IMG/VR virus record: IMGVR_UViG_2609460005_000002
Direction: 5' to 3' (one strand)
Source: a virus
Lineage: Duplodnaviria; Heunggongvirae; Uroviricota; Caudoviricetes
Length of the DNA: 7,368 nucleotides
Below are positions 1,274-2,919 of the stretch, piece by piece (the stretch's first letter is position 1; every line of letters starts with the position of its first letter). Made by a program: the position numbers and the translations under genes. The notes under the pieces were generated by a model that worked only from the letters and a program-made list of their open reading frames with translations, was not told the origin of the DNA and made no database searches.

Positions 1274-1489
1274 ATGACGCTTGAGCGAATCAGCGCCTTT
1301 ATCACGTATTGCATCGCCGTCGTGCTGGCCTGGCTGGGCGATTTGTCCATCAAGGATGCCTCAACGCTGGGCGGCCTGATGATTGGTGTGCTGATGCTGG
1401 CTATCAACTGGTACTACAAACACAAAGCCTACCAGCTTCTGCGCGACGGGCAGATCTCGCGGGAGGACTATGAATCCATCAATCGTTAA
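1274..1489 (+). CDS. Holin, small class II-like with two predicted transmembrane helices
   Basis: 71-aa product with two hydrophobic segments (about residues 7-22 and 31-47) and a charged C-terminal tail (KHKAYQLLRDGQISREDYESINR). It lies directly upstream of, and overlaps, the endolysin gene. It is shorter than the P2 gpY prototype, so orthology to Y is not claimed. Confidence 0.7.
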   Translation: MTLERISAFITYCIAVVLAWLGDLSIKDASTLGGLMIGVLMLAINWYYKHKAYQLLRDGQISREDYESINR

Positions 1490-1982
1490 ACGCTGCCTTG
1501 TCGGGGCCGTGCTGGCTATTGCTGCCACGCTGCCGGGTTTTCAGCAGCTTCACACCTCCGTGGAGGGGCTGAAACTGATTGCCGATTACGAAGGCTGTCG
1601 TCTGCAGCCGTATCAGTGCAGCGCGGGTGTCTGGACCGACGGCATTGGTAATACATCTGGCGTCATTCCAGGCAAAACCATTACGGAACGACAGGCAGCG
1701 GAAGGGCTGATCTCCAACGTGCTGCGTGTGGAGCGGGCGCTGGAAAGATGTGTGAAGCAACAGCCGCCACAAAAGGTGTATGACTCGGTGGTGTCGTTTG
1801 CCTTCAACGTGGGGACAGGCAATGCCTGCAGCTCCACGCTGGTGAAATTGCTCAATCAGCGGCGCTGGGCGGATGCGTGCCGACAGTTGCCGCGCTGGGT
1901 TTATGTGAAAGGTGTGTTTAATCAGGGGCTGGATAACCGCCGTGCGCGGGAGATGGCCTGGTGTTTACAGGGAGCAAACTGA
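1470..1982 (+). CDS. SAR endolysin (T4-type lysozyme fold, GH24), P21 R / P1 Lyz family
   Basis: The N-terminus is weakly hydrophobic and Gly/Ala-rich (CLVGAVLAIAATLPGF), typical of a signal-anchor-release domain. The catalytic region reads E41-G-C43…C50…T56 (DYEGCRLQPYQCSAGVWTDGIGNT). The downstream motif SFAFNVGTGN…STLVKLLNQ…RWVY is recalled as conserved in P21 R-like lysozymes. GGGAGG lies 4 nt before the ATG. Confidence 0.9.
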   Translation: MNPSIVKRCLVGAVLAIAATLPGFQQLHTSVEGLKLIADYEGCRLQPYQCSAGVWTDGIGNTSGVIPGKTITERQAAEGLISNVLRVERALERCVKQQPPQKVYDSVVSFAFNVGTGNACSSTLVKLLNQRRWADACRQLPRWVYVKGVFNQGLDNRRAREMAWCLQGAN

Positions 1983-1983
1983 A

Positions 1984-2361
1984 ATGAAAAAGAAAGTAAT
2001 CAGCGGGCTGTTTCTGATGTTATGGATGGGGCTGTTAATCGAAGCAATGGTGTATCCGCAGGGGATTTTTCCGGTACTGGCAGCGTCCGGTGTCTGGGTA
2101 GCCTGTCTGCTGACATGGGCGGTAATTCCGGTAGCACTGGCTGCGTTAATTAAGAATGGCCCGCTCTGGCAGGAGTTGAGGGCATCTTTGCTGAAGACAA
2201 TTACCCGAAAAGAAAACGTATTTATCAGCTGGGTGATGCGATTGCTGATTGTCGTAAGTCTCGCCTGGACGGGGTGGGCTATTACCCTGGTCTTTTATCT
2301 ACTGACCGTTATTGCCTTCTGGATCACCCGTAATCAGATGGCGCAACAGGTAGCAGCATGA
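1984..2361 (+). CDS. lysA: LysA-like polytopic membrane protein (putative lysis timing / antiholin-like factor)
   Basis: ATG at 1984 is preceded by GGAG (1971-1974). The 125-aa product has 3-4 hydrophobic helices (LFLMLWMGLLIEAMVY; VLAASGVWVACLLTWAVIPVALAALI; LLIVVSLAWTGWAITLVFYLLTVIAFWI). It sits between the endolysin and lysB, as lysA does in P2. The ORF-track start at 1912 lies inside the endolysin gene and was not used. Confidence 0.65.
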   Translation: MKKKVISGLFLMLWMGLLIEAMVYPQGIFPVLAASGVWVACLLTWAVIPVALAALIKNGPLWQELRASLLKTITRKENVFISWVMRLLIVVSLAWTGWAITLVFYLLTVIAFWITRNQMAQQVAA

Positions 2362-2786
2362 ACCGGTTGCTGCTGGTTGTGCTGGCGTTATTACTGGCGG
2401 CGCTGGGCTGGCAGGCGTGGCGGCTGGCTGATGCCAGCCAGACCATTAGCACGCAGGCAGACGAGCTGAAGAGCAAAAGCCAGGCACTGGCAAAGAGCAA
2501 CAGCCAGCTTATCAGCCTGTCCATTCTGACTGAAACTAATAACCGGGAGCAGGCGCGGCTCTATGCCGAATCAGAACAGACCAGCGCGCTGCTGAGACAA
2601 CGACAACACCGGATCGAGGAACTGAAACGTGAGAACGAGGATTTACGCCGCTGGGCTGATATTCCTTTGCCTGCTGACATTATCCGGCTGCGGGAACGTC
2701 CGGCACTCACCGGAGGTGCAGCTTACCGTCAGTGGTTGTCCGCGAGTGACGCCGTGTCGGCTGGATCAGACAGCGCTGCGCACTAA
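2358..2786 (+). CDS. lysB: Inner-membrane spanin (i-spanin), LysB/Rz-like
   Basis: ATG overlaps the lysA stop (ATGA). The product has an N-terminal signal-anchor helix (LLLVVLALLLAALGWQAW) followed by a long charged, coiled-coil-like periplasmic region (…RQRQHRIEELKRENEDLRRW…). The o-spanin gene is embedded in its 3' end. Confidence 0.85.
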   Translation: MNRLLLVVLALLLAALGWQAWRLADASQTISTQADELKSKSQALAKSNSQLISLSILTETNNREQARLYAESEQTSALLRQRQHRIEELKRENEDLRRWADIPLPADIIRLRERPALTGGAAYRQWLSASDAVSAGSDSAAH

Positions 2787-2919
2787 CGGTGATCTGAACG
2801 CGTTGCTGGATGAAACGGAGGCCGCCTGGGCGGTCTGTGCAGACAAAGTGGACATGATTATTGCCTGTCAGGAGCGAAACAGTGAACAAACCACAATCCC
2901 TGCGCCACGCCCTCAATAA
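2629..2919 (+). CDS. lysC: Outer-membrane lipoprotein spanin (o-spanin), LysC/Rz1-like, embedded in the lysB 3' end and overlapping the R 5' end
   Basis: GTG start at 2629 with GAGGA (2616-2620) at 8 nt spacing. The signal peptide has basic n-region residues and the lipobox L-S-G-C, with Cys21 encoded at 2689-2691 and Gly at +2. The mature part is Pro- and Cys-containing. It lies in the +1 frame relative to lysB. Confidence 0.75.
   Translation: MRTRIYAAGLIFLCLLTLSGCGNVRHSPEVQLTVSGCPRVTPCRLDQTALRTNGDLNALLDETEAAWAVCADKVDMIIACQERNSEQTTIPAPRPQ

Follow-up and report, generated by a model that had tools for sequence, protein, structure and literature searches.

A probable cysteine-dependent (P1 Lyz-type) SAR endolysin in the lysis cassette of a P2-like prophage

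The endolysin of a P2-like (Peduoviridae) prophage was identified as probably a cysteine-dependent (class I, P1 Lyz-type) SAR endolysin. By analogy with the P1 enzyme, it is probably kept off through a disulfide until lysis. The gene lies in a 7,368-nucleotide stretch of tailed-phage DNA (IMG/VR record IMGVR_UViG_2609460005_000002), the whole of which is called the window below; coordinates of the gene, its parts and its neighbours are collected in Table 1. The reading of the enzyme as a caged SAR endolysin is supported by homology and by covariation of its cysteines. Class I SAR endolysins are cysteine-dependent, whereas class II enzymes carry E-x8-D-x5-T and a SAR domain without Cys (bioRxiv 10.64898/2026.09.09.750462). 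The endolysin has the features of class I: a Cys (C50) where the catalytic Asp would otherwise stand, a Cys two residues after the catalytic Glu (E+2; C43), and a Cys in the SAR-like segment (C9).

Table 1. Features of the lysis cassette and of the endolysin in the window
Feature	Coordinates	Strand	Assignment or basis
Holin gene of the HP1 holin family; 71 aa, with two predicted TMDs and a C-terminal tail that is charged	1274..1489	+	PF16080, phrog_20
Endolysin gene, 170 aa + stop	1470..1982	+	Probable cysteine-dependent (P1 Lyz-type) SAR endolysin
Residues 1-8 (MNPSIVKR), short N-terminus, presumably cytoplasmic, basic K7 and R8	1470..1493	+	Read from sequence
Residues 9-24 (CLVGAVLAIAATLPGF), SAR-like segment of weak hydrophobicity with C9 (codon 1494-1496) at its N-terminal edge	1494..1541	+	Composition, hydrophobicity
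GH24 / T4-lysozyme-type catalytic domain, residues 39-161	1584..1952	+	Pfam PF00959, E 2.7e-39, profile positions 2-125 of 125
Catalytic and putative caging motif: E41 (1590-1592), C43 (1596-1598), C50 (1617-1619), T56 (1635-1637)	1590..1637	+	Ungapped alignment to P1 Lyz
C94 (1749-1751) and C120 (1827-1829), predicted to form a structural disulfide	1749..1829	+	Co-presence/co-absence in alignment A1
C137 (1878-1880) and C165 (1962-1964), counterparts of P1 C150/C178 and predicted to form a structural disulfide	1878..1964	+	Conservation
LysA-like membrane protein, 125 aa, about four hydrophobic stretches, possibly lysis-timing factor	1984..2361	+	NF038378, phrog_162
LysB, Rz-like inner-membrane spanin subunit	2358..2786	+	phrog_89 Rz-like spanin, E 3.4e-45; PGAP name LysB
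LysC, Rz1-like outer-membrane lipoprotein spanin subunit, 96 aa, lipobox LTLSG|C	2629..2919	+	PF23793, NF038368

Catalytic motif, N-terminal segment and relation to P1 Lyz

The endolysin gene is the longest ORF of its frame. GGAGG stands 3 nt ahead of its ATG, and its first 20 nt are shared with the 3' end of the holin gene upstream. The translation scored 134.8 bits against PF00959 (cut-off 22.3), which places it in GH24, and the catalytic triad E-x8-(D/C)-x5-T of that family is represented by E41, C50 and T56. Seven cysteines are present (positions 9, 43, 50, 94, 120, 137 and 165). The arrangement E41-x-C43-x6-C50-x5-T56, pointed out in an earlier note, was read directly from the 170-residue translation as Y40-E41-G42-C43-R-L-Q-P-Y-Q-C50-S-A-G-V-W-T56, i.e., E-x-C-x6-C-x5-T. 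Chance is not at issue for this motif because it is inherited within a homologous family (PF00959).

When the endolysin was compared with PDB entries by phmmer, the closest solved relatives were P1 Lyz structures (1XJT, E 2.9e-26; 1XJU, E 7.4e-25), with P21 R reaching only 1.5e-17. The motif stretch aligned gap-free to P1 Lyz ('aEGCrrdPYmCpAGVWTdgignt'), with endolysin E41/C43/C50/T56 set against P1 E42/C44/C51/T57. C50 fell on the catalytic position, as the earlier note had claimed, opposite P1 C51 and P21 D44, and the P1 Lyz numbering on which the note relied agreed with AF125376.2 (Cys at 13, 44, 51, 91, 118, 150 and 178). By ungapped inspection, C50 presumably also corresponds to D20 of T4 lysozyme (EGLRLKIYKDTEGYYT).

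The endolysin and P1 Lyz share the GH24 fold, the motif E-G-C-x6-C-x5-T with identical spacing, seven cysteines each (endolysin C137/C165 matching P1 C150/C178), and a weakly hydrophobic N-terminal segment that follows basic residues and has a Cys close to its cytoplasmic end. They differ in that identity is only 35-37%, the hydrophobic segment is shorter (16 residues in the endolysin vs ~19 in P1, by inspection) and less hydrophobic, and C9 directly follows K7-R8, 34 rather than 31 residues ahead of the caging Cys. The middle pair is C94/C120 rather than P1 C91/C118, with both endolysin partners shifted by +4; 12 residues are inserted behind the NxG motif in P1 Lyz; and P1 lyz is unlinked to the holin gene lydA, whereas the endolysin gene is part of a compact holin-endolysin-spanin cassette. 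C9 was not paired with P1 C13 in the phmmer alignment. C13 of P1 Lyz is said to attack the C44-C51 bond.

An AlphaFold model of the endolysin had a pLDDT of 93.1, with residues 11-30 above 90 and arranged as helices against the body. The best Foldseek match in the PDB was 1XJT ('active form of P1 Lyz'; TM 0.86 over 173 columns, N-terminal segment included), vs TM 0.58 for 1XJU ('secreted inactive form'). The model is not independent evidence, since the PDB used for training contains 1XJT.

SAR domains were recognised in sequence as uncharged, weakly hydrophobic, Ala/Gly/Ser/Thr-rich N-terminal segments after 1-3 basic residues, the basic residues before the hydrophobic stretch being typical of SAR endolysins (PMC9239132). 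The endolysin N-terminus has this layout: K7-R8 is directly followed by C9, which opens a 16-residue uncharged stretch (C9-F24) containing 7/16 Ala/Gly/Thr (4 Ala, 2 Gly, 1 Thr). The mean Kyte-Doolittle value of the segment was 2.08 (over 15 residues) vs 2.44 for P1 Lyz, and C9 stands at the edge of a weakly hydrophobic, SAR-like segment, in line with the earlier description. A crude hydrophobicity sum, which applies no position weighting and cannot tell a SAR domain from a signal peptide, rated the segment as marginal.

Conservation and covariation of the cysteines

Homologues were collected in an alignment (A1) of 27 sequences with 36-97% identity, 24 of them full-length. The N-terminal Cys occupied one alignment column in 24/24 full-length homologues and in each case marked the cytoplasmic edge of a hydrophobic stretch that showed no other conservation. 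E41, C50 and T56 were invariant and C43 was at least 90% conserved. C137 and C165 were each at least 90% conserved, and this pair was found in 15/16 sampled phage endolysins, Asp-type ones included; the two would pair with each other in the endolysin. C94 and C120 were present together or absent together, some of the sequences that lacked them carrying a pair at the P1 positions (C91/C118), and these two are predicted to form a structural disulfide. C9 also showed no variation among 79 IMG/VR loci and was found in 116/117 close clusters covering the position; the single-protein viral scan returned only relatives of 97-99% identity and informs on prevalence, not on diversity.

Diversity was covered by a set of 150 representatives of clusters at 50% identity. 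Twenty-two of these, the query and P1 Lyz among them, combine a hydrophobic N-terminus with C43 and C50; the N-terminal Cys was present in 18, and the remaining four appear N-terminally truncated. C43 and C50 were both present without an N-terminal extension in 20/150. The pair thus also occurs in many GH24 enzymes that lack such an extension and is therefore no proof of caging; on these alignments, the discriminating feature is the third Cys, in the hydrophobic segment, rather than the C-x6-C pair. The three-Cys topology had been put forward in the earlier note as the hallmark of P1 Lyz. This stands for the N-terminal Cys, which is conserved and covaries, and does not stand for the C-x6-C pair alone.

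Covariation was assessed in 16 annotated phage endolysins with a hydrophobic N-terminus. This sample was used instead of the Asp-type contrast among the 150 representatives, which was too small and unreliable (3 sequences with odd, long N-termini). The N-terminal Cys was present in 8/8 endolysins with Cys at E+2 vs 0/8 without (Fisher exact test, p ~8e-5).

Alternative readings and related endolysins

With an ordinary cleavable Sec signal peptide, C9 would be lost, the N-terminal segment would have no role in regulation, and the product would be a soluble periplasmic lysozyme. This is quite unlikely. The layout would suit a signal peptide (basic n-region K7-R8, short hydrophobic core, A16-I17-A18 as a possible signal-peptidase motif), as would a hydrophobic stretch shorter and weaker than that of P1 Lyz; however, a removed segment would not retain a Cys in one column among homologues with 36-97% identity, nor would a discarded Cys covary with a Cys of the mature domain. 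The AXA-like motif lies within the hydrophobic core, with Pro22 close after it, and P1 Lyz has a similar AIA motif, which is reportedly not cleaved. In the AlphaFold model, residues 11-30 (pLDDT >90) lie against the catalytic domain, which is also the arrangement of full-length active P1 Lyz. Klebsiella phage KP12 peg.319 (OM835953.1) belongs to an identical cassette, and its product matches the endolysin at 167/170 residues (98%); after purification, this protein caused lysis of K. pneumoniae lawns (Kim et al. 2023, PMC9902359). The purified protein ran at full-length size (18.6 kDa; PMC9902359), which argues weakly against cleavage given overexpression. The same paper noted that the SAR domain is conserved and that TM-align gave 0.83 against 1XJT; the cysteines and control by disulfides are not among its topics. 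Very improbable is a soluble cytoplasmic endolysin released via large holin holes, with the N-terminal helix as part of the globular fold. The AlphaFold model does fold this segment onto the body, TMD1 of the holin is quite hydrophobic, unlike the SAR-type TMD1 of the S21 pinholin, and Pfam puts the holin in the HP1 family with the P21 S family below threshold. Seven Cys as likely disulfides nevertheless suit a periplasmic protein, two basic residues followed by 16 uncharged ones form a SAR/signal-anchor layout, and homology to P1 Lyz spans the full length. SAR endolysins are known to function with any membrane-depolarising holin (P1 LydA).

The enzyme might instead be a SAR endolysin under topology and refolding control only, like P21 R, with its cysteines structural or incidental and C50 an uncaged substitute for Asp; this too is unlikely. 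Phage 21 R/E. coli RrrD (PDB 3HDE, 3HDF, 4ZPU; class II) resembles the endolysin as a GH24 enzyme that begins with a SAR domain and has an equivalent of the C137/C165 pair, and it illustrates SAR endolysin control without any cysteine, conformational rather than covalent. Many soluble GH24 enzymes, moreover, have a C-x6-C pair without an N-terminal Cys, and natural variants with G43 (P0089) or V9 (P0098) exist among close relatives. P21 R differs, however, in having Asp (D44) at the position of C50, as the earlier note had stated, and also in having Val at E+2 and a SAR domain without Cys; the endolysin has both C50 and C9. The three cysteines strictly co-occur where the N-terminus is hydrophobic. 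A free Cys pair seven residues apart in an exported protein is expected to be oxidised in the DsbA-containing periplasm, and the pair of the endolysin would likely be so. P1 Lyz, the nearest solved relative, keeps its catalytic Cys in a disulfide until activation (PMC3556154). Caging as in the Lyz103 type (Erwinia phage ERA103; represented by vB_EamP-S2), in which the disulfide brackets the catalytic Glu and a catalytic Cys is not involved, is scarcely credible and conflicts with the sequence itself. The S2 enzyme of this type is likewise a SAR-type GH24 protein with Cys in the SAR segment and at E+2, but its cage is C42-E43-G-C45 and its catalytic residue Asp, whereas the endolysin has Tyr at E-1 (Y40-E41-G42-C43) and Cys at the catalytic position (C50), and is nearer to P1 Lyz in sequence and fold.

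Lysis cassette, proposed mechanism and significance

The holin encoded directly upstream matched Pfam PF16080 (Phage_holin_2_3; E 4.3e-9, 36.7 bits, cut-off 28.8) and the phrog_20 holin (E 1.9e-26), bears the PGAP name 'HP1 family phage holin' and is 26% identical to the HP1 holin. Its score against the P21 S holin family (PF04971) was 23.2 bits, under the 26-bit cut-off, and its TMD1 (ISAFITYCIAVVLAWLG) is strongly hydrophobic. In phage P2, K/Y take the same late-operon position between gene X and lysA/lysB/lysC as the endolysin and holin here. The P2 Y holin belongs to another Pfam family (PF04550). P2 K (165 aa) has no hydrophobic N-terminus and no sequence similarity to the endolysin (BLASTP E 0.015, over 24 residues only), which bears out the earlier view that the enzyme is not of the P2-K type. 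Where P2 carries its unrelated Y/K pair, this cassette has the HP1-family holin and the endolysin; the holin-endolysin pair has been swapped as a module. Haemophilus phage HP1 (Peduoviridae, U24159) is likewise P2-like, with an HP1-family holin directly upstream of its Lys, in which C11 falls within a hydrophobic N-terminal segment and the motif reads E47-G-C49-x6-C56-x5-T62; HP1 Lys is 35% identical to the endolysin, longer (186 aa), and has a longer linker between hydrophobic segment and catalytic domain and a P1-like insertion. The P2-like phage PSP3 was considered as a further SAR-endolysin carrier on the strength of a Vibrio phage note ('ENLYS_BPPS3_SAR-endolysin') and was rejected; the PSP3 endolysin is P2-K-like and unrelated to the query.

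The LysA-like protein matched NCBIfam NF038378 (DNZ54_00345 family, E 1.2e-35) and phrog_162, with weak similarity to P2 LysA over 32 aa only; the annotation of P2 lysA reads 'nonessential; affects timing of lysis'. In a Yersinia phage with a related lysozyme gene, lysB is directly next, without a LysA-like gene between. LysC matched Pfam PF23793 (E 2.4e-14) and the NCBIfam P2_Rz1 equivalog NF038368 (E 3.4e-35, profile positions 2-85 of 85), and lysC overlaps lysB in another frame. Programmed frameshifting was considered as the origin of endolysin-LysA fusion proteins and found to be unsupported: the junctions lie at three different G runs, each amounting to a single lost base. Such a fusion was found in 0/79 IMG/VR loci. 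The cassette is present in 1031/5426 complete E. coli genomes (about a fifth).

By analogy with P1 Lyz, the GH24 domain would be exported to the periplasm by Sec, with K7-R8 and C9-F24 serving as a weak, uncleaved N-in anchor in the inner membrane. While the enzyme is tethered, catalytic C50 (in place of Asp) would be disulfide-bonded to C43, and it is proposed that the enzyme is therefore inactive; C9 would sit at the cytoplasmic edge of the bilayer, kept reduced. Depolarisation of the membrane by the adjacent HP1-family holin would let the weak anchor exit the bilayer, upon which attack of the C9 thiol on C43-C50 would yield C9-C43 and set C50 free. The N-terminal segment would then pack on the catalytic domain to give an active muramidase, with C94-C120 and C137-C165 as putative structural disulfides, and the LysB/LysC spanins would then disrupt the outer membrane. 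With an unusually short SAR segment (16 residues) and a Cys abutting K-R in this widespread Peduoviridae clade, release and exchange might not follow depolarisation spontaneously and might need the conserved LysA-like, four-TMD DNZ54_00345 protein encoded downstream as a retention/release factor, like the Mu gp25 releasin. This is a long shot; if true, LysA-type proteins would gain a defined molecular role as SAR endolysin retention/release factors.

The finding is not new in kind: cysteine-dependent SAR endolysins are an established class, and HP1 Lys has the same triad of cysteines. The feature is real but ordinary and its discovery value is small; its value lies in annotation, because public records say only 'lysozyme' or 'endolysin'. 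Where this enzyme or the KP12 orthologue is produced for antibacterial use, a dependence of activity on both redox state and the N-terminal segment is to be expected. The covariation of the three cysteines offers a simple sequence rule separating cysteine-dependent from cysteine-independent SAR endolysins. The comparisons support the view that a very common P2-like prophage lineage of E. coli, Klebsiella and Salmonella uses a P1 Lyz-type endolysin with an HP1-family holin, not P2 Y/K.

Catalytic motif and N-terminal segment

The 170-aa endolysin (cysteines at positions 9, 43, 50, 94, 120, 137 and 165) was assigned to the GH24 phage lysozymes (PF00959, E 2.7e-39). Phage P1 Lyz was the top solved match (1XJT, 2.9e-26; 1XJU, 7.4e-25), followed more weakly by P21 R and RrrD (about 1e-17) and T4 lysozyme (about 6e-4). 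The alignment to P1 Lyz (AF125376.2; cysteines at 13, 44, 51, 91, 118, 150 and 178) ran without gaps across the motif Y40-E41-G-C43-RLQPYQ-C50-SAGVW-T56, so that E41, C43, C50 and T56 correspond to P1 E42, C44, C51 and T57. An earlier note, made from the sequence alone, had picked out these four residues and drawn on the P1 Lyz numbering; both were right when checked against the translation, the ungapped alignment and AF125376.2. The Asp that it placed at the catalytic position of P21 R was found as D44 in PDB chains 3HDE and 4ZPU, where the motif reads E35-G-V...D44...T50 and the N-terminal segment carries no Cys.

Residues 1-8 (MNPSIVKR) ended in two basic residues and were followed by an uncharged stretch, C9-F24 (CLVGAVLAIAATLPGF), with Ala, Gly or Thr at 7 of 16 positions. 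The segment was shorter and less hydrophobic than that of P1 Lyz (Kyte-Doolittle 15-mer maximum 2.08 vs 2.44). According to a published description, a SAR (signal-anchor-release) domain starts with basic residues and continues as a weakly hydrophobic, small-residue-rich stretch often overlooked by hydropathy programs (PMC9239132). By composition residues 1-24 match this description, in agreement with the earlier placement of C9 in a weakly hydrophobic SAR-like segment. Taken alone, the same composition is also compatible with a signal peptide, and evidence was therefore sought for retention of the segment and its contact with the mature domain.

The AlphaFold2 model computed from the alignment reached a mean pLDDT of 93.1, with residues 11-30 above 90 and folded as short helices packed against the body. 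In a Foldseek search of the PDB the top match was 1XJT ('active form of P1 phage endolysin Lyz'), at TM 0.86 across 173 columns including the N-terminal segment; 1XJU ('secreted inactive form') gave TM 0.58. The model, itself dependent on 1XJT, fits an N-terminal segment that would belong to the mature active fold.

Cysteine conservation and covariation

A HMMER scan of 1.84 billion cluster representatives returned 16,206 relatives, of which the best 150 were examined. A hydrophobic N-terminus together with C43 and C50 was present in 22 non-redundant sequences among these 150 (query and P1 Lyz counted); in 18 of the 22 the N-terminal segment included a Cys, and the remaining 4 appeared N-terminally truncated. 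Within a 27-sequence alignment (36-97% identity), C50 was invariant, C43 was at least 90% conserved, and the N-terminal Cys occupied one column in 24/24 full-length sequences, always at the cytoplasmic edge of the hydrophobic stretch (KRC, KLC, AIC, GTC, GGC, KTC, GSC, SAC), the remainder of which was unconserved.

Covariation was assessed in 16 distinct sequences obtained from the query, P1 Lyz, HP1 Lys, P21 R and 13 annotated phage endolysins chosen for a query match at or near the N-terminal region (in 12 of the 13 the alignment begins no later than query residue 18, and the remaining one bears the annotation 'SAR-endolysin'). Cys at E+2, the second residue after the catalytic Glu (query C43), was present in 8 of the 16. 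All eight had the N-terminal Cys, which was found in none of the eight endolysins without the E+2 Cys (Fisher exact test, p about 8e-5, an indication and no strict probability because the sequences share descent). The catalytic position was Cys in six of the eight (query, P1, HP1, Yersinia 201.16, Vibrio PE001 and Klebsiella phi5.4) and Asp in Klebsiella K59PH2 and Era103-like Erwinia S2 (C42-E43-G-C45). Linkage between the two cysteines would not be expected of a signal peptide removed by cleavage.

Two query relatives from the protein searches were natural close variants: P0089 (87% identical; 'lysozyme [Dryocola sp. LX212]') has G in place of C43, and P0098 has V in place of C9. Apart from these, all seven cysteines were invariant in 79 IMG/VR loci and in nearly all of 120 close clusters. 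The two variants may offer naturally occurring tests of the caging model, unless they are errors.

Both motif cysteines occurred without an N-terminal extension in 20 of the best 150 diverse representatives, several with C-terminal extensions past the catalytic domain. The relatives P0164, P0168, P0190, P0191, P0215 and others are GH24 enzymes that read FEGC-x6-C-x5-T and lack an N-terminal hydrophobic segment; several are C-terminally extended, and most lack the C137/C165 pair. Because many GH24 enzymes without a hydrophobic N-terminus share the motif, the catalytic Cys and E+2 Cys are widespread beyond SAR endolysins. The earlier note is corrected on one point: taken alone, E-x-C-x6-C is no hallmark of caging; what discriminates is a third Cys located in the hydrophobic N-terminus. 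A further relative, P0177 (242 aa), has E-x-C-x6-C, no N-terminal extension and a Cys-containing hydrophobic segment near its C-terminus (WLWLAGLMIGLACWIAH), and might represent a version of the three-cysteine arrangement anchored at that end.

C137 and C165 aligned with P1 C150 and C178 and were near-invariant, Asp-type SAR endolysins included. C94 (1749-1751) and C120 (1827-1829) were both shifted four residues relative to C91 and C118 of P1 Lyz; among homologues they were both present or both absent, and in some homologues that lack them the pair sits where P1 has its own. Homologues carry one or the other arrangement of this middle pair, which resembles a disulfide moved one helical turn. 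By analogy with P1, we infer that C94-C120 and C137-C165 would be two structural disulfides, leaving three cysteines for the regulatory switch.

Lysis cassette in P2-like phages

The window (7368 bp) represents the late-gene part of a P2-like (Peduoviridae) prophage. Across its entire length it was 96-97% identical to Escherichia phage 500465-1 (Wadgaonvirus), as it was to many prophage records from Klebsiella and E. coli. Gene order was taken from annotated relatives and family scans of the window.

Gene order in the window
Feature	Coordinates	Strand	Length	Family or position
Small terminase gene, 3' end				first in gene order
Head-completion gene L				after small terminase
Tail gene X	1067-1270
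Holin gene	1274-1489		71 aa	PF16080
Endolysin gene	1470-1982	+	170 aa	GH24, PF00959
LysA-like membrane protein gene	1984-2361
LysB	2358-2786
LysC	2629-2919	+		P2_Rz1 equivalog
R, S, V, W, J, I, beginning of H				3' of LysC, in that order

An E. coli E10 chromosome segment was 100% identical to the holin-to-LysA stretch. This cassette was present in 1031 of 5426 complete E. coli genomes (about 19%), where PGAP names its genes 'HP1 family phage holin', 'lysozyme' and 'DNZ54_00345 family protein'; close relatives of the endolysin lay on at least 595 IMG/VR contigs.

The holin belongs to the HP1 holin family and was not called a pinholin, its match to the P21 S pinholin family being sub-threshold. 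When 1274-2361 was compared with P2 (NC_001895, 6716-7934), X, lysB and lysC were syntenic on the flanks, with P2-type spanins kept, and the LysA-like gene had marginal similarity to P2 lysA (E 0.002 over 32 aa). P2 differs in having another holin (Y, PF04550) at this position and an endolysin, K (165 aa), that lacks a hydrophobic N-terminus and is unlike the query in sequence, as the earlier contrast with a P2-K type had it; the same is true of PSP3. P2-like phages have therefore swapped the holin-endolysin pair as a module. The arrangement seen in the window recurs in the Haemophilus phage HP1, also P2-like, whose HP1 holin gene precedes that of a lysozyme carrying C11 within a hydrophobic N-terminus and the motif E47-G-C49-x6-C56-x5-T62. 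A CDS note in Vibrio phage PQ189371, 'ENLYS_BPPS3_SAR-endolysin', was considered as a reference to PSP3 and rejected, the PSP3 endolysin being P2-K-like; the mnemonic ENLYS_BPPS3 presumably denotes another phage, e.g. PS34.

The o-spanin LysC appears to be a 96-aa ORF with a lipobox (LTLSG/C), and its match covers the P2_Rz1 equivalog profile in full (positions 2-85 of 85); near-identical phage records annotate a 3' fragment only (39 aa in NC_049342, 57 aa in KP12).

Of the 120 top-ranked close protein clusters, about 40 were fusions of endolysin and LysA-like protein (276-296 aa); such fusions were absent from the 79 IMG/VR loci. Most have the junction NRRAR/RWPGVYREQTEM, equivalent to a single G missing from the GGG run at 1948-1950, and others map to the two other G runs (1925-1928, 1970-1972). 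Because the lysA frame is open from 1912 (1912-1986), any one-base loss within a 72-nt stretch joins both genes and drops C165. Several fusions came from complete NCBI chromosomes, and one fusion cluster was on 30 contigs. Slippage mutations in decaying prophages, or sequencing errors in homopolymers, probably account for them.

Proposed activation and precedent

What is shown for the query protein is its sequence-level features; the P1 Lyz scheme is the best-supported account of it, with topology, release and disulfide exchange drawn by analogy. The enzyme would be exported by Sec with its N-terminal segment kept as a weak, uncleaved anchor, and a C43-C50 disulfide would tie up the catalytic Cys during tethering. 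Upon depolarisation of the membrane by the holin, the anchor would leave, C9 would attack C43, and C50 would be freed. Which Cys attacks which in the P1 Lyz scheme was reportedly set out by Xu et al. in 2005. The catalytic Cys of P1 Lyz is locked in a disulfide until activation (PMC3556154), the Dsb system acts on its SAR domain (PMC9239132), and SAR endolysins fall into recognised classes, a cysteine-dependent 'class I' and a cysteine-free 'class II' (bioRxiv 10.64898/2026.09.09.750462).

Klebsiella phage KP12 peg.319 was 98% identical to the query and lay in the same cassette. After purification it lysed lawns of K. pneumoniae, and its AlphaFold model was aligned to 1XJT (TM 0.83) and a Lyz SAR domain described; its cysteines were not discussed by its authors (PMC9902359). 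The query is a known kind of enzyme. Given the KP12 precedent, HP1 Lys and the frequency of the cassette in complete E. coli genomes, the finding of the earlier note is correct and well reasoned, but ordinary.
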